A DNA stretch of 64,000 bases, taken from NCBI GenBank assembly GCA_964583105.1, contig CAZOUV010000003.1:14946-78945 (forward strand). The letters run 5' to 3'. This stretch comes from an uncultured Gammaproteobacteria bacterium (lineage in GTDB: Bacteria > Patescibacteriota > Microgenomatia > UBA8517). Position numbers and translations under genes: made by a program. Positions within the stretch are counted from its first letter, which is position 1; each line of letters opens with the position of its first letter. Under the pieces are notes generated by a model. It searched no databases and was not told the DNA's origin. It was given only the letters and a program-made list of their open reading frames with translations. Below are positions 5,629 to 40,866 of the stretch, in pieces.

Positions 5629-6147
5629 GTGAGTATATTGATAAAAAAGAATTCAAAAATAATACTGATAATCATAGGTGTTATAGTTCTTTCATTGATT
5701 GCGTTTTTCCTACTTAAATCAAAAAACTCGGGCTCAGATAATACATCTCAAGGGACTGTTTTTGGTTCGATCAAGGATGCAATTTCCAAATCATTAAGTA
5801 TTAAATGCGAATATAAAGTAGGGGAGAGCACAACCATTGCCTATGTTAGGGGCAAGGAAATGAGAATTGATGGAAATTGGCAGGGACAAAGTAACTCCTC
5901 CGTAATTATCAAGGAAGACAAAATCTGGTCTTGGGATAATCTAAAGAAAGAGGGGGCCATTATTCCTATTAACAAAGACGAACAGGATCAAACCATATCG
6001 GAAGATTTCATAGATAGTCTTGAAGAACAGAGAGATTTCTGTAAAGTTTCCGTTTATTCCGATTCCGTATTCACACCCCCGGAAGACGTTAGCTTTCAGG
6101 ATTTGGGAGACTTAAATAATCTCATGGTTCCAGGGATTTCCGAATAA
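5629..6147 (+). CDS. hypothetical membrane-anchored protein
   Basis: N-terminal signal-anchor (ILIIIGVIVLSLIAFFLL). AAGGAGG RBS at 5623-5629; the likelier start is TTG at 5638. It follows a roughly 290 bp AT-rich promoter region. Confidence 0.35.
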   Translation: MSILIKKNSKIILIIIGVIVLSLIAFFLLKSKNSGSDNTSQGTVFGSIKDAISKSLSIKCEYKVGESTTIAYVRGKEMRIDGNWQGQSNSSVIIKEDKIWSWDNLKKEGAIIPINKDEQDQTISEDFIDSLEEQRDFCKVSVYSDSVFTPPEDVSFQDLGDLNNLMVPGISE

Positions 6148-6169
6148 TTGGTTGTGATACTATAAAATA

Positions 6170-7630
6170 ATGTTGGTTTTAGTAGCGGTTTTTCCGCTTT
6201 TGCTGTTTGTAGTTCTTCTTTTGCTGGGGAAGCTTAAGGTTCTTTGGGCTTCAGTAATTTCTTTATTGGCCACGTCTGTCCTTACGTTTTATGTCTGGAA
6301 AATAGATTTAAAACTGTTTTTATCCAGTATATTAAAAGGTGGTTTTATATCTTTTGATATACTTTTAATCGTTTTCGGAGCGATCCTTTTTATAGGACTT
6401 CTAAAAAAGATAAATATTATAGAAAATCTTTGCTACTATCTCGGTACTTTTTCCCAGGATTTAAGAATTCAGGTAATACTTCTTGCATGGTTTTTGGAAA
6501 ATTTTCTGGAAGGAACGGCAGGGTTTGGAACTCCTTCTGCGGTTGTTGCCCCTATCCTTATAGGACTTGGAATAACTCCGATTTGGGCAGTTGCCATAGC
6601 GATGTTGGGGAACAGTGCAAGTGTTGTCTTTGGCGCGGCAGGAACTCCCATAAGGGTGGGATTTTCAGGACTTGATATTTCCCGGGTTCCATATTATTCG
6701 GGACTTTTTAATTTAGTCGGAATTTTAGTTCCCGTCTTTATGCTTTTTGCGGTGACTTATAAAAAGGAAAACTGGAAAAAGTATTTTTGGGAAGGACTTC
6801 CTTTTTCTGTTTTTTCGGGAGTTGCCTACAGTATTCCCGCTTTTTTGATAACTTATTTGGGACAGGAATTTCCCGCTATTTTAGGGTCTATAGTAGGAAT
6901 ATTATTTGTCATTCTTGCCATTAAATTTAAGTTTCTTCTTCCAAAAAATATAATGAAATCTAATAAACAAGAATTTACGGGTGAAAAAATTCCCTTGAAA
7001 AAAGTTATCTTTCCATATCTTCTTCTGGTTTCACTTTTGATTTTAGGAAAATTCCTTTTGGAAAAAGTAGGCTACAGTTTCTATTTCGGCCTTAACCATA
7101 GATTTAGTCTTTTTAATCCGGGAATTATATTTTTACTTACTTCTTTTATAGTTTTTCTTATTTGGAGGAAACACCTAAATGCCACAAAAATATTGATAAC
7201 AAATTCCATCAAAAAATCCATAGAACCCTTTTTGGTTGTTTTTTCCATGTCTGCCCTTGCCCAAATAATGATTAACTCTGGACAAACCGAGGTCATTGCT
7301 CAAAACCTGAAGACAAACCTGCTTCCTGTTATCTCTCCCTTTCTTGGAGCATTTGGTAGCTTCATGACAGGTTCCGCAACGGTATCTAACATAATGTTTG
7401 GTGGACTTCTTGCTAAAGCAGCAGTTGATCTGGGAATGATTCCTTCAATTATTCTTTCTTTGGGGGTTGTGGGTGCCGCCGCGGGAAATATGATTGCCCT
7501 AGCCGATATAATGCCGGCTCTGGCAGTTGTAAACTTAAAAGGCAAGGAAAGGAGTATTTTAAAAAGGGTGTTCGTTCCCTGTCTTATATATATTGCCTTG
7601 GTAGGTATTATTGGCCTTGCAGTAGTATAA
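6170..7630 (+). CDS. L-lactate permease (LctP) family transporter
   Basis: 486 aa polytopic membrane protein carrying EGTAGFGTPSAVVAPILIGLG, which resembles the LctP family signature. Confidence 0.55.
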   Translation: MLVLVAVFPLLLFVVLLLLGKLKVLWASVISLLATSVLTFYVWKIDLKLFLSSILKGGFISFDILLIVFGAILFIGLLKKINIIENLCYYLGTFSQDLRIQVILLAWFLENFLEGTAGFGTPSAVVAPILIGLGITPIWAVAIAMLGNSASVVFGAAGTPIRVGFSGLDISRVPYYSGLFNLVGILVPVFMLFAVTYKKENWKKYFWEGLPFSVFSGVAYSIPAFLITYLGQEFPAILGSIVGILFVILAIKFKFLLPKNIMKSNKQEFTGEKIPLKKVIFPYLLLVSLLILGKFLLEKVGYSFYFGLNHRFSLFNPGIIFLLTSFIVFLIWRKHLNATKILITNSIKKSIEPFLVVFSMSALAQIMINSGQTEVIAQNLKTNLLPVISPFLGAFGSFMTGSATVSNIMFGGLLAKAAVDLGMIPSIILSLGVVGAAAGNMIALADIMPALAVVNLKGKERSILKRVFVPCLIYIALVGIIGLAVV

Positions 7631-24795: not shown

Positions 24796-27144
24796 TTAAG
24801 GGAGATTTACTTCAATCATTGCTCCAGTATCAAGTATTTGGGATTGACCATCTGGATGTGGAGTTGGGGAAGGAATCGGCAAACATGCAGGAACATTTTC
24901 TTTTAAGAAGTATTCGGTTTTTCCATAGCAATTTTTAACAACAAGTCCGTTAGGAATTTCCCAATTTTGGCTTGGAGTATTTCCGAGAAGATTGGTCATT
25001 ATTTTGTTCCAAATAGGGGAAGCTCCGGTTACCCCGGAGGCAATCCTGGACATTGGAGACGAGTCGTTATTTCCAACCCAGACCGCAACCAAATAATTCT
25101 GATTGAAGCCGATTGTAAGATTGTCTTTAAGATCATTACTGGTTCCGGTTTTTACGGCAACTTCAGGATGATTTGTTATAACCAAATAAGATCTGGTTCC
25201 AAATTCGGGAGATCTTGCATTATTGTCTTTAAGGATGTCTATCAGCTGATATGCAACCTCTGGGTTTATGACTTCCTCAAAATCATGATTTTTGTTTTTT
25301 TCTAATATTTTCCCTCTGTAATTTTTAATTTCGGAAATTGCAGACAGCTCCGGTTTCTTACCCATATTGGCAAGAGTTGCAAAGGTTTGGGCAAGTTCGA
25401 TAAGTTTGACATCTCCACCTCCAAGCGTAAGAGAAAGGCCATATTTCGATGGATCCTGCCATGAAGTAATTCCCATCAGCCTTCCCTGTTCAAGCATTTT
25501 AGTAACACCGTAGGAGGCCAAAACTTTAACTGCAGGAACATTTCGCGATTGGGCCAAAGCGTTTCTTAAGGTTATTTTTCCATGGTACTCTCCGTCATAA
25601 TTTTTAGGTATGTAGGCGGGAAGCCCTGCTACTTTAAATACCGTAGGTGAGTCGTCAAGAATTGATGCCGGGGTAAATCCATGCGATAGAGCGTAGGAAT
25701 AATTTACAATTTTTATGGATGATCCGGGTTGTCTTAACCTTAAAGTTACATTTACATTTCCTCCTTGACTGTCGAAATAATCTTTGGACCCGACCATTCC
25801 CAGAATCTCTCCTGTTTGAGGGTTAATTATTAATGCCGCACCATTTCCTACTTTAAGGTTTTTGAGCCTATCTACTTCTTCCTTGACTATTTGCTGAGCC
25901 ATTTCCTGAATTTCATAGTCGAGGGTAGTTGTTACTTCCAAGCCCCCCTTTTCAACTAGATCCTCACCATATTTATCTACCAGAATTTGTCTGACGAACA
26001 TAACGAAATGTGGAGCTTTAATGTTTTTATTTCCGGGAACAATTTTAATTTCCTCGTTTTTTGCTTCTTCTTCCTGCTCAACTGTTATAAATTTATTTAT
26101 TCTCATAAGATTTAAGACATCATCCCTTCTTTGGATCGCAAGTTCAGGACTACCCCCAAAAGGAGAATATTTGGAAGGACTTTTGGTAAGTCCGGCAAGA
26201 TATGCGGCTTCAGATAAAGTTAAATTATGAAGATTTTTGTTAAAATACTCTTCTGCTCCTTCCTTGATGCCATATGCGGTTCCTCCGTAGGAAACTTCAT
26301 TTAGATACATTTCAAGAATCTGATCTTTTGTATACATTCGTTCAGTTTGCATAGCAAGAATAATTTCTTTTACTTTTCTTATTATGGTTTTTTCGGAAGA
26401 TAATAGTGCGTTTTTAACAAGCTGTTGGGTTATGGTAGAGCCACCCGATAATTCATCGGTTTTAATATTCCTGACAACTGCCCTGACAATGCCTCTAATG
26501 GAATAGCCTGAATGTGAATAAAATTCCGCATCTTCGGCAGCCAGGGTTGCAAGTCTGACATGAAGTGGGATTTCGTTTAAAGTTGCGGGAGTTCTATTTT
26601 GGTCCTTAAATATTTTATATAAAAGTACTCCATTTCTATCGTAAATTTTTGTAGATACCTCCAGTGGTCTTGAAACAAGATTCTTGGGGGAGGGAAGGCC
26701 CTTAAATATTGTTATGTAGAAAAAAAAGAAGATACAAATCAGGCAAAATAATCCAATTATTATTTTAGGTTTAAGTTTTAAGGTAGGAAATTTGATTCTA
26801 AAAGAGGGTAATTTAAATTTTGGAAATTTGAATTTGGGCAATCTAATTTTTGGAAATTTGATTTTACCTTTGGGAGCTTTGTAAACAACCTTTTTAAATT
26901 TTCGAAGTTTGAATTTGGGAAAGGTTATTTTTTTAATTTTTATTTTAAATTTTGAAAGACTAAAAAGTATATTTACAACAAAAGAAAAAAGACCCAAAAC
27001 AGAAATAGCCACAAAAGAAAGACTCCAATATAACGGGCGGCCAATTAAAAAAAGCACTTTTTTTACTGCCTTGAGCATGTGGCGGTATTGTAGCACTTTA
27101 CGGCTAATAAAAAAGAAATTAATCAAGTGAATCTTGACATGCAA
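24796..27144 (-). CDS. PBP1A-family bifunctional peptidoglycan glycosyltransferase/transpeptidase
   Basis: GT51 motifs (EDAEFYSHSGYS, GGSTITQQLVKN), transpeptidase SxxK/SxN/KTG pattern (KTGTSND). The N-terminus has KFP(K/L) repeats. Confidence 0.85.
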   Translation of the reverse strand: MHVKIHLINFFFISRKVLQYRHMLKAVKKVLFLIGRPLYWSLSFVAISVLGLFSFVVNILFSLSKFKIKIKKITFPKFKLRKFKKVVYKAPKGKIKFPKIRLPKFKFPKFKLPSFRIKFPTLKLKPKIIIGLFCLICIFFFFYITIFKGLPSPKNLVSRPLEVSTKIYDRNGVLLYKIFKDQNRTPATLNEIPLHVRLATLAAEDAEFYSHSGYSIRGIVRAVVRNIKTDELSGGSTITQQLVKNALLSSEKTIIRKVKEIILAMQTERMYTKDQILEMYLNEVSYGGTAYGIKEGAEEYFNKNLHNLTLSEAAYLAGLTKSPSKYSPFGGSPELAIQRRDDVLNLMRINKFITVEQEEEAKNEEIKIVPGNKNIKAPHFVMFVRQILVDKYGEDLVEKGGLEVTTTLDYEIQEMAQQIVKEEVDRLKNLKVGNGAALIINPQTGEILGMVGSKDYFDSQGGNVNVTLRLRQPGSSIKIVNYSYALSHGFTPASILDDSPTVFKVAGLPAYIPKNYDGEYHGKITLRNALAQSRNVPAVKVLASYGVTKMLEQGRLMGITSWQDPSKYGLSLTLGGGDVKLIELAQTFATLANMGKKPELSAISEIKNYRGKILEKNKNHDFEEVINPEVAYQLIDILKDNNARSPEFGTRSYLVITNHPEVAVKTGTSNDLKDNLTIGFNQNYLVAVWVGNNDSSPMSRIASGVTGASPIWNKIMTNLLGNTPSQNWEIPNGLVVKNCYGKTEYFLKENVPACLPIPSPTPHPDGQSQILDTGAMIEVNLP
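26760..26950 (-). repeat. imperfect tandem repeats (about 15 bp, AATTTGAATTTGGG-like) encoding KFKFPKFKLP repeats in the PBP1A N-terminus
   Basis: The repeating aatttg(g)a(a)tttggg units are visible directly in the sequence. The corresponding protein segment is ITFPKFKLRKFKK...KFPKIRLPKFKFPKFKLPSFRIKFPTLKLKPK. Confidence 0.6.
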
Positions 27145-27169
27145 ACGATGTACATATAAGATATGTACA
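27134..27169 (+). promoter_or_regulatory. promoter plus palindromic operator of brnTA (TTGACA; TGTACATAT-AAG-ATATGTACA)
   Basis: TTGACA at 27134-27139. A perfect 9-bp inverted repeat at 27149-27169 ends 1 bp before the ATG at 27170. Confidence 0.45.
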
Positions 27170-27475
27170 ATGAAGATCAGGGGTAAGATAGTTGGCTTTG
27201 AATGGGATAAGGGAAATTTAGATAAAAGTTACAAGAAACATGGAATTGAGCCAAAGCAGACAGAAGAAGTATTTATTGACAGCGAATCGATTGTTTTACC
27301 GGATGTTAGACACTCTCAAAAAGAGGATAGATTTATTATTATTGGCAGGACATTGGAAAAAAAACATCTTTTCATAATCTTTACGTTCAGGGGAAGCAAT
27401 GTCCGAGTAATTTCAGCAAGAAGAATGCACAAAAAGGAGGTGGAAAGATATGAAAAACTTAAAAAGAATACCTAA
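27170..27475 (+). CDS. brnT: BrnT-family (DUF497) ribonuclease toxin
   Basis: GFEWDKGN hallmark motif. The 12-aa N-terminal extension in the ORF track is encoded by the palindrome and is probably not translated. Confidence 0.7.
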   Translation: MKIRGKIVGFEWDKGNLDKSYKKHGIEPKQTEEVFIDSESIVLPDVRHSQKEDRFIIIGRTLEKKHLFIIFTFRGSNVRVISARRMHKKEVERYEKLKKNT

Positions 27476-27710
27476 ATTTAAAACCGAAGAGGAAGAAAGG
27501 AAATTCTGGCAAAAAGCCGACTCTACTGAATATGTAGATTGGTCAAAAGCGGAGAAATGGGTATTTCCTGACCTAAAACTAACATCCACACCGATAACCA
27601 TAAGAATTCCAGAATCTCTGCTTAGCAGAGTAAAAACTAAAGCCCACCAGAGAGATATTCCGTACCAATCTTTGATAAAACAATATATTTATAGGGGTTT
27701 GGAGGTTTAA
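27450..27710 (+). CDS. brnA: BrnA-family antitoxin (CopG/RHH-like)
   Basis: KTEEEERKFWQKADSTEYVDW resembles the BrnA EEAEFWDTHD motif. The C-terminal RHH-like region overlaps brnT by 26 nt. Confidence 0.6.
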   Translation: MKNLKRIPKFKTEEEERKFWQKADSTEYVDWSKAEKWVFPDLKLTSTPITIRIPESLLSRVKTKAHQRDIPYQSLIKQYIYRGLEV

Positions 27711-27986: not shown

Positions 27987-30194
27987 TTAGAGGGGGTATC
28001 TAATTACTGCCGAGGTTGAAGCGATGGGGCATTCCATGCAGTAAATAGTCCCTAAAGGATCTATATAAACGGCTTTGTTTTGCGTAGATATTTGATCCGG
28101 GGGGGTATCCTGAGTTGCCTGTTGTTGTGTTGAATTAAGAATTGTAATATCCATTCGTTGTCCTGTTGTTTTTTCGGGGATAGATCCTTCCATAAAGTAT
28201 TCAAATCTGGTAGGACAACCCGCAGCTTCTCCTTCACCCAGAGGTAAAAGTCCATCAACCGCGCAAACCGTTTTTCCAATAATTGAGTCCGGTTGGCCCG
28301 GCCATGAATGACCTTCCTCTTCTTTGTTATATATTCCTTTCTCGGATTTATCTAGAACAGCTTTCATAATTTTATTCCAAATAGGTGAAGCTCCTGAAAC
28401 TCCCGAAACAGCTCCTCCCATGGGGGCGTTATCGTTGTTCCCGACCCAGGTTACAACCACCGCTTGGGGAGTAAATCCAATTGTCCAATTATCACGTCTG
28501 TCGTTAGTTGTTCCGGTTTTGACCGATACTTCGGGATGGCCCTTGACATTTAAGTATGAGGATTCTCCAAAAGCCTGCATTCTAGCATTATTATCAAGTA
28601 GTGCATGAGATATTAAAAAAGTTACGTCTGGAGGAAGCACTCTTTCACCATTAAGTTCAATATCTGCGATTTTTGTTTCCTGGTAAACTTTTCCCTTCCA
28701 GTCAGTGACCTTGGTTATAGCGATTAAATCCTCTTTGATTCCACTGTTTGCAAAAACTCCGAAGGCAACTGCCATGTCGTAGGGTCTAACTTCTCCTCCC
28801 CCTAAAGTCAAAGAAAGTCCGTATTGATCAGGATCCGTTAAGGTGGTTAAACCCATTTGATTGGCAAAATAAACAAGATTGTCAACACCGTTTAAAGCAA
28901 GAATTCTGACGGCAGGAATATTGTATGAATTTCCCAATGCAAATCTTGCCTGTACAAGCCCATGGAATGTTCCGTCATAATTTACGGGACAATAATCGGG
29001 TTGGCCGGCAACCTTAAAACAAGTTGGTACATCCGCAAGAGCTGTTGCCAAATTTATTTTGTTGTCCTTTAGGGCCAAAGCGTAGTTAATAGGTTTTATT
29101 GACGAACCGGGTTGTCTTTTGGCTAAGATAACATTTACTTTCCCATCTTCGTCTTCAGCAAAGTAGTCATAAGAACCCACCATCGCCAAAATCTCTCCAG
29201 TTGCCGGTTTTGTAACAATTGCCGCACCGTTTCCAACCTTTTGTTTTTTAAGTTTTGCAACTTCAGTAGCAACTGTAGCTTGGGCCAGATCTTGTAAATC
29301 AAGATCGAGGGTGGTATTAACTCTTAATCCACCTTGTTCTACAAGCCTTTCTCCGTATTTTTCAGTTAAAAGTTCTTTTACCCAAAGGGCAAAATGCGGC
29401 GATTTTGGAGGGGTGATGTTTGCATACTTAAGTTCTTCGGCCAAAGTTTTATCAGCTTCTTCTTGGGTTATTTTTTTGTTTTCAACCATATTTTTAAGTA
29501 CTGTTTTTTGTCTCTCTTTTGCATATTCGGGATGTGCACCAAAGGGGGAATATCTTGTCGGGGATTGGGGAAGGCCCGCTAAAAGAGCCGCTTCGGCAAG
29601 ACTTAAGTCTTTGGCGGATTTATCAAAATAAAGTTCGCTGGCTGTTTCAATTCCGTATGCTGTTGAGCCATAGGGGATTTGATTTAAATACATCTCAAGT
29701 ATCTTATCTTTGGTATAGATGGTTTCAACAACTAAAGTTAATGCGAACTCCCGGATTTTTCTTCTGATAGTTCTTTCCTGAGTTAAAAGCGAATTTTTGA
29801 CAAGTTGTTGGGTCAAGGTGGAGCCTCCTTGAAGTTTTCTTTTAAAAACAATATTAAAAACACTTCTTATTATCCCTGTCGTCGAAAATCCAGAATGTTT
29901 ATAAAAGTCCTTGTCTTCAATAGATATTGTTGCATCTATTACATGTTTGGGAATATCTTTTAGGTCGATAGGACTTCTTCTTTGCTGGGTGTAAATTTCG
30001 TAAATTAATTTTCCATTTCTGTCAAATAATTTTGTTGAAACAGGAATTGCGTCCGATGAAAGTTTGGTGGGAAGCGGTATTCCCCAGAACAACCAGAGAA
30101 ATAGAGAAATTGTAACGGTAAAAAAAATTAACTTTTTTCGGTTTTTCTCTACCTTTAAAAATAATTTTACTTTTTCGAAAAAACTAACTCTCAT
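27987..30194 (-). CDS. PBP1A-family bifunctional peptidoglycan glycosyltransferase/transpeptidase (second paralog)
   Basis: EDKDFYKHSGFS, GGSTLTQQLVKN, KTGTTNDRRDNW. 735 aa, with an Asp/Gln-rich C-terminal tail. Confidence 0.85.
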   Translation of the reverse strand: MRVSFFEKVKLFLKVEKNRKKLIFFTVTISLFLWLFWGIPLPTKLSSDAIPVSTKLFDRNGKLIYEIYTQQRRSPIDLKDIPKHVIDATISIEDKDFYKHSGFSTTGIIRSVFNIVFKRKLQGGSTLTQQLVKNSLLTQERTIRRKIREFALTLVVETIYTKDKILEMYLNQIPYGSTAYGIETASELYFDKSAKDLSLAEAALLAGLPQSPTRYSPFGAHPEYAKERQKTVLKNMVENKKITQEEADKTLAEELKYANITPPKSPHFALWVKELLTEKYGERLVEQGGLRVNTTLDLDLQDLAQATVATEVAKLKKQKVGNGAAIVTKPATGEILAMVGSYDYFAEDEDGKVNVILAKRQPGSSIKPINYALALKDNKINLATALADVPTCFKVAGQPDYCPVNYDGTFHGLVQARFALGNSYNIPAVRILALNGVDNLVYFANQMGLTTLTDPDQYGLSLTLGGGEVRPYDMAVAFGVFANSGIKEDLIAITKVTDWKGKVYQETKIADIELNGERVLPPDVTFLISHALLDNNARMQAFGESSYLNVKGHPEVSVKTGTTNDRRDNWTIGFTPQAVVVTWVGNNDNAPMGGAVSGVSGASPIWNKIMKAVLDKSEKGIYNKEEEGHSWPGQPDSIIGKTVCAVDGLLPLGEGEAAGCPTRFEYFMEGSIPEKTTGQRMDITILNSTQQQATQDTPPDQISTQNKAVYIDPLGTIYCMECPIASTSAVIRYPL

Positions 30195-30200
30195 GATATA

Positions 30201-30698
30201 TTGATATTATATATGGACGAGAGCCTTAAAAAGAAGTCTTGGTGGCTAAATTTGGAAACAGATATCCAAGAACTTCTAGAAGAGTCTTTTTTACTCCTCG
30301 AACTTTTTGAAAAAGAACCGGGAAAATTTAAAGATTATTCCTTCGTGGTTTTCCCTGCGGCCAAAGCATATGAGGGATTCCTTAAAAAATTGTTTTTGGA
30401 TAAAGGTTTCATTACAAAAGAGGATTACTTCGGAAAAAAATTTAGAATAGGTAAATCCCTAAATCCTTATTTGGATAAAGAACTAAGAGACGAAAGTGTA
30501 TATGACAAGATAGTAGCTCATTGCGGCGGTAAATTTCTGGCAGATCTTTTCTGGGAAACTTGGAAAAGTTGTCGAAATATTGTTTTTCATTGGTTTCCCG
30601 ATGAAAAAAATATAGTTACACTACCTGAGGCTGGGCAAAAACTGGAAATGATAGTTACTGCAATTGATGAAGCAAATAAAGCGTGCCATACTAAATAA
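30201..30698 (+). CDS. hypothetical protein with HEPN-like Rx4H motif
   Basis: 165 aa, predicted helical. CRNIVFHWF near the C-terminus fits R-N-x3-H. No other family was recognised. Confidence 0.3.
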   Translation: MILYMDESLKKKSWWLNLETDIQELLEESFLLLELFEKEPGKFKDYSFVVFPAAKAYEGFLKKLFLDKGFITKEDYFGKKFRIGKSLNPYLDKELRDESVYDKIVAHCGGKFLADLFWETWKSCRNIVFHWFPDEKNIVTLPEAGQKLEMIVTAIDEANKACHTK

Positions 30699-31346
30699 AT
30701 GCTTAAAAAAGAGAAAATAATCAAAAACATTACCGTATACGCGATTTATATACTGATTATCTGGGGTTTTTATAGAGTTTTATTTAAACTTCCCGATAAT
30801 TTAGAAGAACTGATATTAAAACCGATCATCTGGCTTACTCCACTTATATTTCTTCTTAAAAAGGAAAAACTAGGGATCGGTTCTTTGGGAGTAACCCTAA
30901 AGAACTTATTCCCTGCAGTTTATTTAAGTTTGGGTCTGGGTGCAATTTTTGCAATTGAAGCAATATTTTTAAATTTCTTAAAATATAAAACTTTTAATTT
31001 TGGATCAAACATTGGGGAGGGGGGATTGGTGCTATCGCTGATTATTTCTTTCGCAACAGCCTTTTCAGAGGAAATTTCTTTTAGGGGTTATATCTTTAAC
31101 AGATTATGGAGTGTTTTGAATAACGAATGGCTTGCCAATTTTGTTACTAGTACTATCTGGTCACTGGTTCATGTGCCGATAACCATATTTGTTTGGAAGT
31201 TAAGTTTATCTGCAGCAATTTTATACCTATTTCTGACATTTCTTTTTGGGCTTGGATCGGCCTTTGTCTTTGCTAAAACCAAAAACGTATTTTCCTCAGT
31301 TTTTCTCCATGTCCTCTGGCAGTGGCCGATTATTCTTTTTAGATAA
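30699..31346 (+). CDS. CPBP-family (CAAX/Abi) intramembrane metalloprotease
   Basis: Motif 1 EExxxR (FSEEISFRGY), motif 2 (SLVHV) and motif 3 (FLHVLWQ); about 6 TM helices. The start codon abuts the stop of the preceding ORF. Confidence 0.65.
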   Translation: MLKKEKIIKNITVYAIYILIIWGFYRVLFKLPDNLEELILKPIIWLTPLIFLLKKEKLGIGSLGVTLKNLFPAVYLSLGLGAIFAIEAIFLNFLKYKTFNFGSNIGEGGLVLSLIISFATAFSEEISFRGYIFNRLWSVLNNEWLANFVTSTIWSLVHVPITIFVWKLSLSAAILYLFLTFLFGLGSAFVFAKTKNVFSSVFLHVLWQWPIILFR

Positions 31347-31406: not shown

Positions 31407-32048
31407 ATGTTAAAAAGGATTGCGTTAATTTTGTCCACAGTTATTTTTGCATTCTTTATTCTTTCAATTTCTGTTTTAAGATCTTCAGCAATAAGACCCA
31501 ACATTAGAGTTTATTCCGCAACCCCAAGACCCGAGTTAAACAAAGAAGGCGTAGATAATAATATTGAAGTGCTTTATATCATGCCTTATTGTGGAAGAAT
31601 CCTTCCCGATAGTCCAATTTGGCCATTAAAGGCGTTAAGGGACAGGCTTTGGATGCTTGTAACAACAAATAACATGAGGAAGGCCGAACTTTCTTTGTTA
31701 TTTGCAGATAAAAGATTAATGTCATCATATGAACTTTTCAAATTAAACAAACCCCAAATAGCTTTAACGACACTGACAAAAGCAGAAAAATACTTAGAGG
31801 AAGCAAGTATTATTGAGAAGGAAGAAAGGGCAAGGGGGGTGGATACAAAATCATTTTTAATTACTTTAGCAACTGCCTCCTTGAAACACCGTGAAGTTAT
31901 TGAAGAGATGTTAGCCTTTGTTCCTGATGACATAAAACCGAGTGTTATAAAAACAGAAGATTATGCCAAGATTATATTTAAGGAGACCCATGAAGTTCTA
32001 CAATCCTTTGGAATATCTACGCCCGAAAGCCCCTTCGATATCAACTAA
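31407..32048 (+). CDS. hypothetical signal-anchored protein
   Basis: N-terminal TM helix followed by a soluble, probably alpha-helical domain. Confidence 0.3.
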   Translation: MLKRIALILSTVIFAFFILSISVLRSSAIRPNIRVYSATPRPELNKEGVDNNIEVLYIMPYCGRILPDSPIWPLKALRDRLWMLVTTNNMRKAELSLLFADKRLMSSYELFKLNKPQIALTTLTKAEKYLEEASIIEKEERARGVDTKSFLITLATASLKHREVIEEMLAFVPDDIKPSVIKTEDYAKIIFKETHEVLQSFGISTPESPFDIN

Positions 32049-32282: not shown

Positions 32283-32741
32283 ATGAAGTGTCCTTTTTGT
32301 AAATTTAACGATTCTGAAGTTTTGGAGTCAAGGGTTACCGAAAACGGAAGTTGCATAAGAAGAAGGAGGTCTTGCCCTAAATGCAAAAAAAGATTTACAA
32401 CACAGGAAAAGATTAAAGATTCGGTTATTTGGGTGATTAAAAAAGACGGAAGACGGGAACTTTTTGATAGAGAAAAAGTAAAAAGGGGGATTGTAAGGGC
32501 TTTGGAAAAAAGACCGGTGGGAATGAACGTTGTTGACGAGATAGTTAACGAAATCGAAAGAGAGATGCTTGGAGAGGAAAAGGAAGAAATTCCCACAACG
32601 GTAATTGGAAAAGCGGTTTTAAGAAAACTTAAGAAAATCGACAAAGTAGCGTGGTTGAGGTTTGCAAGTGTCTATTTTGAATTTGAAAATTTGGATGATT
32701 TCGAAAAGATAATTGATAAAAAACAAATGGGCAAAAAATAA
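32283..32741 (+). CDS. nrdR: transcriptional repressor NrdR
   Basis: MKCPFCKF...CPKCKKRF zinc ribbon plus ATP-cone; 152 aa. Confidence 0.9.
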   Translation: MKCPFCKFNDSEVLESRVTENGSCIRRRRSCPKCKKRFTTQEKIKDSVIWVIKKDGRRELFDREKVKRGIVRALEKRPVGMNVVDEIVNEIEREMLGEEKEEIPTTVIGKAVLRKLKKIDKVAWLRFASVYFEFENLDDFEKIIDKKQMGKK

Positions 32742-32742
32742 A

Positions 32743-35307
32743 ATGTTGCAAAAAATTACAAAAGAAAAAAATAAACAAAGAAAAACCGCTATTAAAAAAA
32801 GTTATACAAACGGTACAAACGGTCACTCAAAAAATTTTCATCTTTCTCTAGATTCATTGGTTTTTTTACCCTACGAAAAGATAAAAGAAGAGATACATAA
32901 AAAAATAGGTTACATGCCAGATAAACCCAAAGATTTGAAAAAGGGTTTTTGGACAGAACAAGCTGTTAAGGTATTAAGTGAGAGATATTTAATGAAAGAC
33001 GCTAAAGGGAAGATTATTGAAACACCTGAAGATTTGTGCTGGAGAGTTGCCTGGGAAGTTGCTTCCGCTGAAGCAAGATGGGGAAAAACCAAAAAGGAAG
33101 TATTAGATATTGCTAAAACATTTTACAACCTTTTGATTGGCCATGAATTTCTTCCTAACTCTCCGACACTAATGAATGCTGGAACGGAAAACCATTTACA
33201 ATATTCTGCCTGTTTCGTGATTCCAGTTGAAGATTCAATTGAAGGGATTTTTGATGCACTGAAATATCAAGCACTGATTCATAAAACCGGAGGAGGAACA
33301 GGATTTTCTTTTTCAAGACTTAGGCCCAACGGGTCGATGGTTAAAACTTCTTCAGGTACAGCATCGGGCCCAGTTTCTTTTATGAGGATTTTTGATGCTG
33401 CCACCAATGAAGTGAAACAGGGCGGTAAAAGAAGGGGTGCAAACATGGGCATTTTAAGAGTTGACCATCCTGATATTTTGGAATTTATTCATTGCAAGGA
33501 AAATGGAGGAATAACGAATTTTAATATTTCAGTGGGGATTACAGATAAATTTATGCATGCTTACAAAGAAGGAAAGGAATATGAACTTGTTAATCCCAAA
33601 ACAAAAGAAGTTTCAGGAAAACTTTCGGCAAAAAAGGTTTTCGATGAAATTGTCAAACTTGCTTGGAAAACGGGAGACCCGGGAATAATATTTATAGACA
33701 GAATTAATACGGGTTCTGCAAATCCAATTCCTTCATTGGGACCAATAGAATCAACAAACCCTTGCGGAGAACAGCCTTTATACCCCTTTGATTCATGTAA
33801 TTTGGGAAGTATTTTTTTAAATTATTTTGTTAAAAAAGAAGAAAATAAAAGCACTATTGATTGGGATAAGTTGGAGCAGGTAACCAAAAAAGCTGTAAGG
33901 TTTTTAGATAATGTAATCGAAGTCAATCCATATACTCTTCCCCAAATAAGACAAACAACGCTTGCCATAAGAAGAATTGGGCTTGGGGTAGCCGGTTGGG
34001 CGGACCTTTTGATTGAATTAGGAATTTCCTATGGTAGTCAGGAGGCCTTAGATCTTGCTAAAAAGTTAATGAGTTTTGTTAACCAAAAAGCAAAAGAAGA
34101 GTCGTATCAGCTTGCTAAAGAAAGAGGACCGTTTCCTCTTTGGCAGGAAAGTATTTACAAAGATGATTTTCCCAGAAGAAATTCGACACTTACAACAATT
34201 GCTCCGACCGGGACAATATCAATAATTGCAGGTTCTTCTAGTGGGATTGAACCCCTTTTTGCAATTGCATATGAACATATAGTTAGGGATAAACACCTGG
34301 ATAGAAAACTTGCTTTTGTTAACCCGAAATTTGAAGAAGTATTAAGAGAAAAGGAAATTTGGTCTGATGAAATTAAGAATAAGCTGGCAAAAACAGGAGT
34401 AGTTGGGCAAATAGCAGAAATTCCTGAAGAGATAAGAAAAGTTTTTTCAACTGCCCATGAAATTGAACCCGTTTGGCATATCAAAATGCAGGCCGTGTTT
34501 CAAGAAAATACCGAGAATGCGGTTTCAAAAACAATTAATCTAAGACATGATTCTAGGGAAGAAGATGTTAAAAATGCGTATCTTCTTGCCTGGGATATGG
34601 GATGTAAGGGAATAACCATATTTAGGGACGGCAGTAAGGGAGAACAAGTTTTAAACCTTGGTTTAAACGATAAAAAAGAAACAAACGGAGTTGTCAAAGA
34701 ATCTCACAATGAGCCCTTAGTAACAAGACCATATAAAGTTTCCGGTTCAACCTACAGAATTACAACTCCGGTAGGAACAGCGTTTATTACAATTAATGAA
34801 AACGAAAGTAAAGAACCGATTGAACTTTTTATAAATATTGGGAAAGCGGGAAGTGATCTTGCCGCAATGGCTGAGGCTTTAGGAAGAACAATTTCGACCG
34901 CCTTTAGGTTTCGAGGAGAACTTTCCCCCAAAGAAAGGGCTAAAGAAATTGCCTTTCAACTTTCGGGAATTGGAGGAAGAAGGTCGATAGGTTTCGGACC
35001 CGCAAAAATTCTTTCTCTTCCGGATGCGGTGAGCATTGCTCTTTCCAGTCATTACAATTTTAAAATCAACGGAAATTTAATGGTCGGAAGTATTTTAGGA
35101 GGAAACGGGGTCTTAGCAAGCGGAACCGTACCTACTGTGAGGGCTACCCAGCATCAGGAAACTGATGCAACCTTAGACCCCGCAGCAGTTGCGATTTCGC
35201 TTAGTGAGACTCATGTAGGAGATATCTGCCCGTCCTGCGGGGCATCGGCTCTTGTCAACGAAGAAGGCTGTTCCAAGTGTCATGCTTGCGGACATTCGGA
35301 GTGTTAG
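32743..35307 (+). CDS. nrdJ: class II (adenosylcobalamin-dependent) ribonucleotide reductase NrdJ
   Basis: NPCGEQPL active-site motif, class II layout, C-terminal Cys-rich zinc ribbon (CPSCGAS...CSKCHACGHSEC). The start was set at MLQKIT, 1 nt after the nrdR stop. Confidence 0.9.
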   Translation: MLQKITKEKNKQRKTAIKKSYTNGTNGHSKNFHLSLDSLVFLPYEKIKEEIHKKIGYMPDKPKDLKKGFWTEQAVKVLSERYLMKDAKGKIIETPEDLCWRVAWEVASAEARWGKTKKEVLDIAKTFYNLLIGHEFLPNSPTLMNAGTENHLQYSACFVIPVEDSIEGIFDALKYQALIHKTGGGTGFSFSRLRPNGSMVKTSSGTASGPVSFMRIFDAATNEVKQGGKRRGANMGILRVDHPDILEFIHCKENGGITNFNISVGITDKFMHAYKEGKEYELVNPKTKEVSGKLSAKKVFDEIVKLAWKTGDPGIIFIDRINTGSANPIPSLGPIESTNPCGEQPLYPFDSCNLGSIFLNYFVKKEENKSTIDWDKLEQVTKKAVRFLDNVIEVNPYTLPQIRQTTLAIRRIGLGVAGWADLLIELGISYGSQEALDLAKKLMSFVNQKAKEESYQLAKERGPFPLWQESIYKDDFPRRNSTLTTIAPTGTISIIAGSSSGIEPLFAIAYEHIVRDKHLDRKLAFVNPKFEEVLREKEIWSDEIKNKLAKTGVVGQIAEIPEEIRKVFSTAHEIEPVWHIKMQAVFQENTENAVSKTINLRHDSREEDVKNAYLLAWDMGCKGITIFRDGSKGEQVLNLGLNDKKETNGVVKESHNEPLVTRPYKVSGSTYRITTPVGTAFITINENESKEPIELFINIGKAGSDLAAMAEALGRTISTAFRFRGELSPKERAKEIAFQLSGIGGRRSIGFGPAKILSLPDAVSIALSSHYNFKINGNLMVGSILGGNGVLASGTVPTVRATQHQETDATLDPAAVAISLSETHVGDICPSCGASALVNEEGCSKCHACGHSEC

Positions 35308-35880: not shown

Positions 35881-36201
35881 ATGCCCATATTTCCCGAAAG
35901 AGAAAAAAATGTAATTGAAACACCCGAAGAGGCCTCGGCCTTAACTATTGAAAGAAAAGAAGTTGTAACTCCAATTCCAGTTTCTTTTTCCAAACAAGTA
36001 AAAACCGATTCCGGAAAGCCCCTCATGGAAATTCCGGGTCAAGGGGGGAAGATTAAAATAACAATACCCAAGTCTCAGGTTGAATTAGAAACTCTTTCAA
36101 AAGGATCTGTATCAGATTCCATTACCTGGTTTGCTGCGTTTTGGATTAGAATGATTAAGAAAGCTCTGCATTTCGGATGGGAGCTTTTGGGTGGTCACTA
36201 G
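35881..36201 (+). CDS. hypothetical small protein
   Basis: 106 aa; it overlaps the start of the downstream ATPase by 11 nt, suggesting translational coupling. Confidence 0.3.
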   Translation: MPIFPEREKNVIETPEEASALTIERKEVVTPIPVSFSKQVKTDSGKPLMEIPGQGGKIKITIPKSQVELETLSKGSVSDSITWFAAFWIRMIKKALHFGWELLGGH

Positions 36202-38539
36202 TATGGTTACAGAAACGTTATTTGATTACAATTTAATTATTAATATTCTCCTTTTTTCGGGAGTAGCAGCTACTTTATTTGTCGCATTGTGGCAAATTGC
36301 TTTAACCTTTTTTAAACACAGGGGTAGAGAAGAAAGAAGTGTTGACTCGGTTCTTCTTCAGATTGCACTGCCAAGAAATAACGAAACCAAGATTGATGCC
36401 ATGGAACAAGTATTTTCTTCTCTATATTCGATTAAAAAAGGTGGATGGAAACAAAGATTTTCGGTTCAACCTACCGTCTCTTTTGAAATTGTGGCCATGC
36501 AGGAAGACATAAGATTCTTTGTCTGGTGCCCCAAAAAACTTCAAGATCTTTTGGAAAAGCAGATTAACGGAGGTTTTCCGGAAGCGGAAATTAAGGAAGT
36601 TCCCGAAGTTGATATTTTTAAAGAAAAAGGTAAGGTTGCCTATAAATCCCTTCAGCTTTCCAAGGCAAATTTCTATCCCCTTAAAACCTTTAAAGATTTG
36701 GCAACTGATCCACTAAGTTCGGTTACATCTACCTTGGCTAAAATGGGACCCGATGAAGCCGCATCCGTTCAGATACTTGTATCTCCTGCTGAAAGTGCTT
36801 GGCAAAAATCGGGAAGTAAATTTATTTCTGATACCAAAAAACAGGAATCCGATCCTGAGAAAGCAAAATTTTCAACCTCAGCAAAAACTTTGGAAGCGGT
36901 TGAAAGTAAAATTGCAAAACCCGGATTTGAGACATCAATAAGAATTGTTGTTGTCTCCGAAACATCGGAAATTGCAAAATCACATCTTGATAATATTGCA
37001 TCCTCCTTTAGCCAATTTGCATCAGATACAAATCTTTTAAAGAAGAGAAAAATTGTCAATAAAGGTGCTTTCATGGAAGATTTTCTTTACAGGTATCAGC
37101 CGATGTTTAATATGCCCGGCAATAGAATGTCTGTTTTAAATTCTGAGGAACTTGCAACAATATATCATTTTCCCAATAAACAAGTCACAACCCCGCATAT
37201 TTTTTGGCTTAACGCAAAAACAGCCCCGGCCCCTTCTCAAATACCCATGGAGGGAATGTTTTTAGGCAATAGTATTTATAGGGGAATTAAAAGACCAGTC
37301 TTTATTTCCAACGAGGACAGGATGAGACACGTTTATATTATTGGTAAAACCGGAACCGGAAAATCCGAACTACAAAAAGAAATGATAATTCAGGATATTA
37401 AAGATGGTAACGGCCTTTGTTTTATAGATCCTCACGGAGATGCTCTTCAGGAGATATTAAAACAGGTGCCTCCTGAAAGAGCAGAGGATGTAATTTACTT
37501 TAATCCTGCAGATACCGAGCGTCCCATGGGACTTAACCTTCTAGAGGCAAAAACAGAAGATGAAAAACACTTCGCCGCAACATCAATTATCAATATGATG
37601 TATAAACTTTTCGATCCTTATAAAACAGGTATTGTGGGTCCCCGTTTTGAACACGGAGTCAGAAACGCAATGCTCACGGCAATGAGTGAAGAAGGTAACA
37701 CCTTTGTTGAAGTAATGCGCATAATGACCGACTCGCGCTATGTCCAAGAGCTTCTTCCCAAGGTTCAGGACCCCATTGTTAGAAGATACTGGACCGATCA
37801 GATTGCCCAAACCGCGGACTTTCATAAATCCGAAGTTTTAGATTATACGGTTTCCAAATTCGGAAGGTTTGTTACAAATAGACTCATAAGAAACATTATC
37901 GGTCAATCAAAATCGGCATTTGATTTCAGGCAAATTATGGATCAGGGTAAAATTCTCCTTATCAGTCTTGCCAAGGGAGAGCTGGGAGAGGAAAACTCAA
38001 ACTTTTTGGGACTTATTTTAATTCCCAGGATTTTGATGGCGGCCATGAGTAGGGCCGATATGCCTAAGGAGCAAAGACGAGACTTTTTCCTTTACGTAGA
38101 TGAGTTTCAGAATTTTGCCACCCCCGATTTTGCAACCATTCTTTCTGAGGCAAGAAAATACAGCTTGGGTCTTTGTGTAGCAAATCAGTTTATAGGTCAG
38201 GTGGAAGAGGAAGTTAAAAATGCGGTATTTGGTAATGTCGGAACAATAGTTGCATTCAGAGTGGGAGTGACGGATGCAAACTATTTACAGCATGAATTTA
38301 CTCCGACGTTTGCGGAAGATGATTTATTAAACATTGAAAGATATCATGCTTATATAAAAACCACGGTTCATAATGAACCAGTTCCTCCTTTTTCCATGGA
38401 TTTGACCAAAGACATGGCTCAACAAAAAGCTTCCGAAAATGAAAGAGTTGCAGAAATAATAAAAGAAATGAGTAGGATAAAGTACGGTAGGGATGGGAGA
38501 ATAGTTGAGGCGGAGATTGCAAGACGTTCTAACCTATGA
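36191..38539 (+). CDS. membrane-anchored FtsK/HerA-superfamily ATPase, type IV coupling protein-like (VirD4/TraD/TraG-like)
   Basis: N-terminal TM helix. Walker A is IIGKTGTGKS, followed by FIDPHGD. Walker B is FFLYVDEFQNF. The C-terminal ANQ region is present. The unique N-terminal domain of about 330 aa is unassigned. Confidence 0.55.
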   Translation: MVTSMVTETLFDYNLIINILLFSGVAATLFVALWQIALTFFKHRGREERSVDSVLLQIALPRNNETKIDAMEQVFSSLYSIKKGGWKQRFSVQPTVSFEIVAMQEDIRFFVWCPKKLQDLLEKQINGGFPEAEIKEVPEVDIFKEKGKVAYKSLQLSKANFYPLKTFKDLATDPLSSVTSTLAKMGPDEAASVQILVSPAESAWQKSGSKFISDTKKQESDPEKAKFSTSAKTLEAVESKIAKPGFETSIRIVVVSETSEIAKSHLDNIASSFSQFASDTNLLKKRKIVNKGAFMEDFLYRYQPMFNMPGNRMSVLNSEELATIYHFPNKQVTTPHIFWLNAKTAPAPSQIPMEGMFLGNSIYRGIKRPVFISNEDRMRHVYIIGKTGTGKSELQKEMIIQDIKDGNGLCFIDPHGDALQEILKQVPPERAEDVIYFNPADTERPMGLNLLEAKTEDEKHFAATSIINMMYKLFDPYKTGIVGPRFEHGVRNAMLTAMSEEGNTFVEVMRIMTDSRYVQELLPKVQDPIVRRYWTDQIAQTADFHKSEVLDYTVSKFGRFVTNRLIRNIIGQSKSAFDFRQIMDQGKILLISLAKGELGEENSNFLGLILIPRILMAAMSRADMPKEQRRDFFLYVDEFQNFATPDFATILSEARKYSLGLCVANQFIGQVEEEVKNAVFGNVGTIVAFRVGVTDANYLQHEFTPTFAEDDLLNIERYHAYIKTTVHNEPVPPFSMDLTKDMAQQKASENERVAEIIKEMSRIKYGRDGRIVEAEIARRSNL

Positions 38540-40002: not shown

Positions 40003-40866
40003 TTATAATTCAATTAGGACCTGCCTCTTTCCTGATTCAGTTACTCCTGCAAGTTCAAGGTAACGTTCTGTTGTTGAAAGCCTTCTGTGTCCCGAAACTT
40101 GTGAAAGAAGAACAAGATCAACACCTCCTTTGATGTTTTCAATCATGAATGTTGTTCTTAAATCATTTACTGAATAATTTGGGATTTCCGCTCTTTGCAT
40201 GTACCTGTCAATTGCTGCCCTTATGTTTCTTACGGCAATGGGTTTTCCGGACTTACTTATAAATACATATTCAGATTGAACTTTTGGTCTATTTGTAAGA
40301 TATAAATCAAGCGCGTCTTTGGCGGGTTTGTTTAAAGGAATTGTCCTTTCTGCTTGTGTTGCATATGCTTCTATTTTTACGGTTCCGTCCTTGACGTCTT
40401 CGGTTTTAAGATTGGCTACTTCCGAAATTCTTATTCCGGTTTGCAATATGAGTTCAACCATGGCTGCAATTCTGGTATCGCCCCTTACAACATCTCTCAA
40501 GGCTCTGTATTCCAGTTGTGACAGAAATTTGGGAAGAGAGCTTTCAACTTTTGGGTGAGAAACCGTATTTGAGGTATCACTTGTAAGGAGTCCCTCAGAA
40601 ACAAGCCATCTGAAAAATGTTTTAACGGCATTTAGTTTTCTTGAAACCGACTTAGGAGTATATTTTTGGGTCAAAAGGGTATCTCTAAAACTTTCCAAAT
40701 CAGATGAAACAACCTGGTCTATTAAAGGTTTGTTTTTGTTTAGAAGAAATGCAACTAATTGATCAAGATCTGCTCTATAGGCAATAACCGTTGAGGGAGA
40801 TCTTCCTTTTACCTTTAAACTCTCGATAAATTTCGGAACAAGGTTTTTAACCGTTTCTTGTGTCAT
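40003..40866 (-). CDS. tyrosine site-specific recombinase (XerC/XerD/phage integrase family)
   Basis: N-terminal SAM-like core-binding domain. The C-terminus has GHRRLSTTERYLEL (conserved His and catalytic Tyr); the box II His residues are replaced (NDLRTTF). Confidence 0.75.
   Translation of the reverse strand: MTQETVKNLVPKFIESLKVKGRSPSTVIAYRADLDQLVAFLLNKNKPLIDQVVSSDLESFRDTLLTQKYTPKSVSRKLNAVKTFFRWLVSEGLLTSDTSNTVSHPKVESSLPKFLSQLEYRALRDVVRGDTRIAAMVELILQTGIRISEVANLKTEDVKDGTVKIEAYATQAERTIPLNKPAKDALDLYLTNRPKVQSEYVFISKSGKPIAVRNIRAAIDRYMQRAEIPNYSVNDLRTTFMIENIKGGVDLVLLSQVSGHRRLSTTERYLELAGVTESGKRQVLIEL

Follow-up and report, generated by a model that had tools for sequence, protein, structure and literature searches.

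The gene pair described here lies in a 64,000-nucleotide stretch of contig CAZOUV010000003.1 (assembly GCA_964583105.1, positions 14,946 to 78,945), hereafter the window, and encodes a small HEPN-superfamily protein followed by a CPBP family intramembrane protease. A sequence-only reading of this DNA had reported two abutting open reading frames (ORFs), with a HEPN ribonuclease (RNase) signature in the first, and had suggested a toxin/immunity or phage-defence module. The abutment was confirmed: the TAA stop codon of the HEPN ORF (30696-30698) is directly followed by the ATG of the CPBP ORF (30699). The first ORF had been read from position 30201, and this frame does exist, with TTG 30201 as an alternative start. 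ATG 30213 is nevertheless the more likely start, since the N-termini of orthologs align with it, and the protein is thereby shortened by four codons, from 165 to 161 residues. The two genes and their conserved sites are listed below, with HEPN conservation counted over orthologs from 80 species-representative genomes, including five complete chromosomes, which were retrieved via the HEPN protein.

30213..30698, + strand: HEPN ORF, 161 residues, from ATG 30213 to TAA 30696-30698
30363..30374, + strand: K51-A-Y-E54, counterpart of R255/E258 of RnlA (KAYEG aligned to RAIEG of LsoA)
30522..30524, + strand: Cys104, a Cys in 75/80 orthologs
30573..30590, + strand: R121-N-I-V-F-H126, the Rx4H HEPN RNase motif (aligned to RHGLFH of LsoA; R318...H323 in RnlA)
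30684..30686, + strand: Cys158, near the C-terminus, a Cys in 78/80 orthologs
30699..31346, + strand: CPBP ORF, 215 residues, multi-pass, its ATG 30699 abutting the HEPN TAA
31068..31085, + strand: CPBP motif 1, E124-E125-I-S-F-R129 (E124, E125 and R129 in 72/72 CPBP orthologs and 25/25 HEPN-CPBP fusions)
31158..31172, + strand: CPBP motif 2, W154-S-L-V-H158 (W154 and H158 in 72/72 orthologs)
31308..31322, + strand: CPBP motif 3, H204-V-L-W-Q208 (H204 in 69/72 orthologs)

Fold, family and active sites of the two proteins

The HEPN protein had been said to fit no recognised family, which was slightly off the mark, as it reaches the Pfam family HEPN_RnaseLS (PF18869) with an E-value of 6.9e-6, although its 26.9 bits remain below the gathering cutoff of 29. 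The same holds for RnlA-toxin_DBD (PF19034), which is matched at 1.8e-4 (22.3 bits, cutoff 27). All 43 aligned members of the family match both profiles at E <=0.01, the best value being 1.6e-8, and the family profile also aligns with residues 13-154 of the LsoA chain 5hy3_A (E 0.002). The NCBIfam and PADLOC scans returned nothing for the HEPN protein, while in NCBI one ortholog is named 'type II toxin-antitoxin system RnlA family toxin' and the others 'hypothetical'. Judging from these profile matches, the window protein is best placed as an outlying relative of the RNase LS-like Pfam clade, not as a curated member.

The all-helical structure anticipated by the sequence-only reading was borne out by an AlphaFold2 model built from the family alignment (predicted local distance difference test score, pLDDT, 89.9; predicted template modelling score, pTM, 0.87). 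The model is an all-alpha helical bundle, the fold of the HEPN superfamily, and its nearest structural neighbours are the HEPN domains of RnlA and LsoA. Neither a transmembrane (TM) segment nor a signal peptide was predicted in the HEPN protein.

In RnlA, R255, E258, R318 and H323 converge at the canonical HEPN dimer interface and each has been shown to be essential for RNase activity and toxicity, R255 and E258 serving as substrate-binding and His-positioning residues (PMC8266594). The equivalents of this tetrad are K51, E54, R121 and H126, with a conservative Arg-to-Lys replacement at the first position. K51, E54, R121, N122 and H126 are invariant in 80/80 orthologs, and R121, N122 and H126 are also invariant in 25/25 fusions. 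The R-N-I-V-F-H sequence that had been singled out near the C-terminus as a HEPN signature is therefore not a chance match, R121, N122 and H126 being strictly conserved throughout the orthologs. As far as can be predicted from these residues, the window protein is a minimal HEPN protein of the RNase LS class, composed of this domain alone, and its active site appears to be intact.

Outside the active site, Cys104 and Cys158 stand out by their conservation. Both are invariant in the fusions, where C158 is internal. The consensus around C158 is E-C-[KRN]-[ILVM]-x, and the tail that follows this residue comprises 2-13 amino acids, a tail of exactly three residues being the commonest (70/193, 36%) and position +2 being I, L, V or M in 169/193 sequences. 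A strict CaaX box at the C-terminus was considered and rejected on account of the variable tail, the minority share of CaaX spacing and the internal position of the cysteine in fusions. The three sequences without C158 (loci L029, L035 and L120) are also devoid of C104. As C158 is never lost without C104 (3/3), these residues form a pair, structural or functional, which may be involved in a disulfide or redox function, metal binding, contact with the CPBP protein, or modification. In the genome set, loss of Cys158 coincided with loss of the CPBP gene (2/7 versus 0/72, p 0.007). After addition of 64 non-redundant metagenome loci, the figures became 2/15 versus 1/117, with a p-value of ~0.03 calculated by hand in a post hoc test; all eight added CPBP-less loci keep both cysteines, and L120 is devoid of both but possesses CPBP. 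The association between Cys loss and CPBP loss is weak, while the co-loss of C104 and C158 stands.

The CPBP protein matches PF02517 with an E-value of 9.8e-16 (58.3 bits, above the cutoff of 22.4) and contains several hydrophobic segments. The membrane half of a HEPN-CPBP fusion model (see below) was matched by Foldseek to Rce1 (4cad) with a probability of 0.99. The three CPBP motifs had been noted by the sequence-only reading; they are present with their catalytic residues conserved, but two depart from the consensus, motif 2 being WxxxH instead of FxxxH and motif 3 HxxxE/Q instead of HxxxN/D. In fact, 39 of the 72 orthologs have E at position 208 and 27 have Q, replacing the canonical N/D. 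From its conserved residues, the protein looks catalytically competent, in contrast to the non-catalytic relatives SpdC/LyrA or LnsB.

Pairing, fusion and inheritance of the two genes

The pairing was surveyed in the 80 genomes and in 64 further metagenome loci, of which 53 could be assessed and 11 were cut off. CPBP is the next gene in 71 of the 79 assessable genomes (one contig ends early); it is fused in frame to HEPN in L077 and missing from seven others. Similarly, 45 of the 53 assessable metagenome loci carry CPBP downstream and eight do not. The pair is thus kept at 117 of 132 assessable loci (89%), and the adjacency in related genomes on which the sequence-only reading had staked its proposal is upheld. 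Gaps between the two genes cluster from -8 to +12 nucleotides (nt), with many overlaps of 1, 4 or 8 nt, as is usual for genes that are translated together in an operon.

A search with one fusion protein recovered 25 full-length, in-frame HEPN-CPBP fusion clusters of 369-393 residues, publicly annotated merely as 'CPBP family intramembrane metalloprotease'. They fall into two clades that are ~42% identical, one of Candidatus Shapirobacteria type and the other of ADurb.Bin219 type, and both active sites are invariant in 25/25. In the fusion model (pLDDT 83.5, pTM 0.69), the last HEPN helix (137-158) and the first TM helix (160-195) are almost continuous, so that the HEPN domain lies at the cytoplasmic side of the membrane. 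In addition, an exhaustive profile search showed that 13 of 16 more distant HEPN relatives carry one to four predicted TM segments at the N-terminus, followed by a HEPN domain with RNxxxH, indicating that membrane attachment recurs in this HEPN clade. Collectively, the 89% adjacency over 132 loci and the 25 in-frame fusion clusters support that HEPN and CPBP are a real functional pair.

Several more distant loci show other arrangements. In L086, a diverged ortholog locus, a cytidylate-kinase-like (AAA_18) gene (6681-7328) is inserted between HEPN and CPBP, overlapping the start of the latter. TM-bearing HEPN relatives outside the syntenic block are found in L081/L082 (5001-5939), L083 (6001-7098) and L085 (6001-6957). 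One of the distant TM-anchored relatives adjoins genes for an AAA ATPase and an S8 peptidase; others adjoin RDD or DUF4190 membrane proteins, one such region also containing transposase and toxin-antitoxin (TA) genes. These distant proteins may represent a separate, conflict-type use of membrane-anchored HEPN domains.

The HEPN family is narrow, as a profile search among 1.84 billion proteins gave 221 representatives at E <1e-3. All 80 genome loci share a common block, composed of two PBP1A genes on the minus strand and, on the plus strand, genes for HEPN, CPBP, DUF5667, NrdR, NrdJ and a cobalamin-adenosyltransferase-like protein (PBP1A is a class A penicillin-binding protein, PBP). More diverged lineages and the Shapirobacteria fusions keep the divergent PBP1A-HEPN order even where the downstream genes differ. 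Pairwise identities of HEPN and PBP1A are correlated (Mantel r 0.78, a value reached by 0/2000 permutations), as strongly as those of PBP1A and NrdR. Mean pairwise identity is 57.6% for HEPN, 55.0% for CPBP, 41.6% for DUF5667, 65.2% for PBP1A and 69.8% for NrdR. The ratio of nonsynonymous to synonymous substitution rates (dN/dS), taken from locus pairs with unsaturated synonymous sites, is 0.04-0.10 for HEPN (0.22 in one very close pair), in the same range as for PBP1A. No HEPN relative was found in IMG/VR viral contigs, INPHARED phages or PLSDB plasmids, and HEPN, CPBP and DUF5667 were all without a match in PADLOC-DB v2 at E <=1. The module is a vertically inherited, syntenic chromosomal block of Woesebacteria and related Microgenomates within the candidate phyla radiation (CPR, Patescibacteria), and its HEPN gene is under purifying selection.

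Each partner is nonetheless dispensable. CPBP is missing from seven genomes, which the PBP1A tree resolves into at least six independent losses (L012+L018, L020, L029, L035, L048 and L068), and L023, the sister of L035 with 91% PBP identity, retains CPBP. CPBP remnants were looked for in the CPBP-less loci and none was found, the deletions being clean. K51, E54, R121, N122 and H126 are all kept in these genomes and likewise in the eight CPBP-less metagenome loci, and in the CPBP-less sisters L012/L018, HEPN evolves under purifying selection (omega 0.07). L087 is the reverse case, in which PBP1A is divergent from a CPBP-DUF5667 pair and the HEPN gene is absent. Since HEPN and CPBP have each been lost from loci in which the other gene is intact, it is very unlikely that they form an obligatory toxin-antidote pair.

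Genes surrounding the pair

The flanks had been correctly described by the sequence-only reading as a divergent PBP1A gene, a small signal-anchored protein (31407-32048), now assigned to DUF5667, and nrdR.

27987..30194, - strand: class A PBP (PBP1A; transglycosylase and transpeptidase), divergent from HEPN
30175..30202, + strand: promoter-like site TCGAAA-16-TATATT with extended TG and TATATT as -10-like element, ending ~10 nt before the HEPN ATG
31407..32048, + strand: signal-anchored DUF5667 protein (PF18915, E 8e-9), TM residues 5-23
32283-32741, + strand: nrdR, downstream of the DUF5667 gene
32713-35307, + strand: NrdJ, class II ribonucleotide reductase, apparently uninterrupted in the window

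PBP1A is the most persistent neighbour of the HEPN locus in all lineages. The DUF5667 protein has a single, N-terminal TM segment; its gene lies downstream in 77/80 loci, immediately behind HEPN at loci from which CPBP has been deleted, and may belong to the operon as a third gene. In L087, the DUF5667 protein (5865-6803) is longer (312 residues) and carries an extra DUF4430 domain. The start codons of PBP1A and HEPN are only 18 nt apart (30195-30212), which implies either that both promoters are located inside the neighbouring coding regions or that the HEPN mRNA is nearly leaderless. A scan for promoters and terminators gave eight sites against 8.8 expected in shuffled sequence, not above chance, and the promoter-like site ahead of HEPN is a weak hint, of positional value only.

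Other features of the block and of the window are observations in their own right. The window contains two tandem class A PBP paralogs (24796-27144 and 27987-30194, both on the - strand) which are ~47% identical, and this tandem pair is kept in nearly all 80 genomes, notable at a genome size of ~1 Mb. Between the two PBP1A genes lies a BrnT/BrnA pair (RNase toxin and CopG antitoxin; 27134-27710, + strand; Pfam E-values 2e-23 and 1e-30). The same pair occupies other intergenic slots of the block in L034 (7132-7699), L060 (5419-5911) and L088 (3136-3676) and is missing from most genomes, behaving as a mobile TA cassette which hops within an otherwise frozen block. The NrdJ match is interrupted by an insertion of ~1.1 kb, probably an intein or intron, in L050, L056, L057 and L060 (in L056, 8515-9441 and 10534-12054), and at some loci the ribonucleotide reductase is swapped for a distant type (23-39% identity). 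Further downstream in the window, a TrwB-like coupling-protein homolog (36191-38539, + strand) and a tyrosine recombinase of the Phage_integrase/Xer type (40003-40866, - strand) are found next to four clustered tRNA genes (39679, 41609 on the - strand, 41750 and 42684). This region may be an integrated element, or the recombinase may merely be XerC/D. An Rfam scan of the window returned only these four tRNAs, all outside the HEPN-CPBP locus. The remainder of the window is ordinary chromosome, and the immediate surroundings of the pair are housekeeping genes.

Proposed function and relation to known systems

The reading that we favour, with moderate confidence, is that of a conserved, membrane-tethered RNase module which is coupled to a CPBP protein and tied to an envelope locus. 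The first gene would encode a minimal HEPN endoribonuclease from the RnlA/LsoA branch, with no other domain, and the second a catalytically competent, Rce1-like CPBP intramembrane metalloprotease. Both would act together as one physical unit on the cytoplasmic side of the membrane, made as separate, translationally coupled polypeptides in most species and as a single polypeptide in two lineages; the unfused proteins, too, would associate in a complex. RNA cleavage would require, by analogy with RnlA, the pairing of two HEPN domains through their Rx4H faces, and attachment to a membrane protein would localise, and probably gate, this pairing. The divergent class A PBP which adjoins the module in every lineage examined would tie its role to envelope biogenesis or status. 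Such a module would be a conserved chromosomal housekeeping or stress-regulatory RNase, neither an addictive TA system nor a mobile defence island.

This proposal can be extended, although we regard the extension as doubtful, to a bacterial counterpart of the Ire1 logic. CPBP would sense the state of envelope or peptidoglycan synthesis and signal to HEPN through the rigid helix or through a contact dependent on Cys104/Cys158, and the resulting HEPN dimerisation would lead to membrane-proximal RNA cleavage. The envelope-sensing part is suggested by the divergent class A PBP next to the pair and by the extracytoplasmic DUF5667 protein which follows it. In these reduced genomes, such a module could act as the principal RNase at the membrane, either to start mRNA decay or to regulate envelope genes, and an RnlA-type 'toxin' domain would then be a core housekeeping enzyme.

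Several points weigh against the proposal of a membrane-tethered RNase module. By its profile scores, the window HEPN protein falls below the Pfam gathering cutoff, and the first residue of its predicted catalytic site is Lys, not Arg. The partnership is not obligatory, as ~11% of loci are without CPBP and at least one lineage (L087) has CPBP without HEPN. Adjacency statistics are inflated by the conserved synteny of small CPR genomes, and the envelope link suggested by PBP1A is positional only. Finally, the RnlA/LsoA class is otherwise known from anti-phage toxins only, and a lineage-fixed defence system could be equally conserved.

The last point leads to a chromosomally fixed abortive-infection or anti-phage module, which we consider unlikely. 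Here CPBP would sense a phage-induced perturbation of the membrane or envelope, or a phage protein, and would release or activate HEPN, so that RNA is degraded and the infected cell is halted. This would agree with the activity of the closest characterised relatives, RnlA and LsoA, which are anti-phage mRNA endoribonucleases, with the top match in a viral structure library, a phage 'RNaseLS-like protein', and with two distant TM-anchored relatives, one next to AAA ATPase and S8 peptidase genes, the other in a transposase/TA region; the sequence-only reading had also linked CPBP/'Abi' proteins to immunity loci. Known defence genes tend to be patchily distributed, to lie on islands and to evolve fast. 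The HEPN-CPBP pair, however, has an identical position in 80/80 genomes, a PBP1A-congruent phylogeny, dN/dS values like those of housekeeping genes and housekeeping surroundings, with no PADLOC match and no copies in the phage and plasmid collections searched. The classical toxin-antidote arrangement, in which the HEPN RNase would be the toxin and CPBP its obligatory immunity protein or antitoxin, is highly improbable. The intact predicted active site, the tight linkage of the genes, which often overlap, the type II TA nature of RnlA-RnlB and the 'RnlA family toxin' label of one ortholog all recall such a system. Yet CPBP has been cleanly lost at least six times, and is missing from eight metagenome loci, with the five HEPN catalytic-site residues intact; HEPN remains under purifying selection without CPBP (L012/L018); and CPBP also exists without HEPN (L087). 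Moreover, neither a small antitoxin ORF nor an RnlB-like gene flanks the pair, which is inherited vertically with no sign of mobility. The toxin/immunity or phage-defence role put forward by the sequence-only reading is accordingly disfavoured by the vertical syntenic block, the purifying selection, the lack of phage, plasmid or PADLOC counterparts and the dispensability of either partner.

Another possibility, which appears improbable, is that HEPN is a client of the Rce1-like protease, Cys158 being modified (for instance lipidated) and the tail trimmed to yield a lipid-anchored RNase. It is known that CPBP genes recurrently adjoin genes for clients with an invariant C-terminal Cys, with cleavage predicted just after the modified Cys ('myxosortases'), and Cys158 is present in 78/80 orthologs at 2-13 residues from the end, most commonly with a three-residue tail (70/193) and an aliphatic residue at +2 (169/193). 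A lipid would also supply unfused HEPN with the membrane anchor that fused and TM-bearing relatives possess. Against this stand the variable tail, with CaaX spacing in 36% only, and position +1, which is usually K, R or N. Furthermore, Cys158 is kept in 25/25 fusions, where it is internal and an anchor is redundant, and its joint loss with C104 (3/3) suggests a Cys pair and not a lone modification site; the association of Cys loss with CPBP loss faded, post hoc, from p 0.007 to ~0.03 as more loci were added, and no candidate Cys-modifying enzyme is encoded in the block. It is also very hard to sustain that HEPN and CPBP are functionally unrelated and adjacent merely through the frozen gene order of small CPR genomes. 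Consistent with that idea, the whole ~12 kb block is syntenic, including the clearly unrelated nrdR and nrdJ, each gene has been lost independently, and a kinase-like gene separates the two in one lineage. It is countered by the in-frame fusions, whose 25 clusters belong to two diverged clades and all retain the two active sites, by the predominance of stop/start overlaps and abutment, and by the recurrent membrane anchoring of distant HEPN relatives.

All HEPN domains of the RnlA/LsoA type known so far are anti-phage toxins that small antitoxins restrain. In this case, such a catalytic domain, cut down to a core of 161 residues, is encoded by a strongly conserved, vertically inherited gene across a whole CPR class and is coupled to an intramembrane protease. 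Should this coupling be regulatory, it would make RNA cleavage dependent on the state of the membrane or envelope in organisms with very small genomes and few known regulators, and would provide a function for one of the many uncharacterised bacterial CPBP proteases. The evolutionary pattern also fails to bear out the label 'RnlA family toxin' attached to one ortholog, which calls for caution in annotation. In the literature that could be searched, we found no description of a CPBP protein paired with or fused to HEPN or any nuclease, and nothing relevant on HEPN in Patescibacteria, on DUF5667, or on RNase Y/E in Patescibacteria.

The closest known systems are RnlA and LsoA (RNase LS; the type II TA systems rnlAB and lsoAB of E. 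coli, active against T4), with which the window HEPN protein shares its predicted fold and active site. RnlA and LsoA have three domains (NTD and NRD, both TBP-like, and HEPN), whereas the 161-residue window protein consists of HEPN only; identity is 12-17%, and the first site residue is Lys versus Arg. RnlAB and LsoAB possess an RnlB/LsoB antitoxin, while the partner here is a CPBP membrane protease. No Pfam match to an RnlB/LsoB-type antitoxin and no spare small ORF was found adjacent to HEPN, whose neighbours are PBP1A, CPBP and DUF5667. The window gene is vertically inherited and syntenic, in contrast to the patchy or mobile RnlA/LsoA systems. In the 2013 HEPN census, the sole fusion partners given for RNase LS are RNase H-like and TBP-like domains, and its operon partner is RnlB.

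Among the CPBP/Rce1-like type II CAAX proteases (PF02517; MmRce1, myxosortases, staphylococcal MroQ, SpdC/LyrA, LnsB), the window CPBP protein shares the Rce1 fold and the Glu/Glu/Arg/His/His residues, and differs by E/Q as motif-3 partner residue instead of N/D. Like SpdC/LyrA and other staphylococcal CPBPs, it has an envelope-related context, and as with myxosortases, the adjacent gene specifies a protein whose C-terminal Cys is conserved. Myxosortase clients (MYXO-CTERM-like), in contrast, carry a tripartite signal of Cys motif, TM helix and Arg-rich cluster, which unfused HEPN does not have, and the NCBIfam model Mrt_core scores 22.6 bits for a cutoff of 100.

With respect to the proposed mechanism, membrane-tethered RNases of the HEPN superfamily are exemplified by Ire1, with its KEN domain, and by the Cas13b accessory protein Csx28, and Ire1 is switched on by dimerisation driven from its membrane-embedded or luminal part. 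Membrane-bound endoribonucleases which initiate mRNA decay are also represented in bacteria by RNase Y and RNase E. The latter enzymes resemble the proposed module in being conserved, chromosomal and located at the cytoplasmic membrane face, but their folds and mechanisms are unrelated to HEPN. KEN is a HEPN family (2013 HEPN census), and beyond this superfamily level Ire1 and Csx28 have no sequence relationship to the window HEPN protein, whose partner is a protease and not a kinase or sensor. What they would share with it is a HEPN-type domain held at the membrane and, for Ire1, a dimerisation logic that matches the one proposed here.

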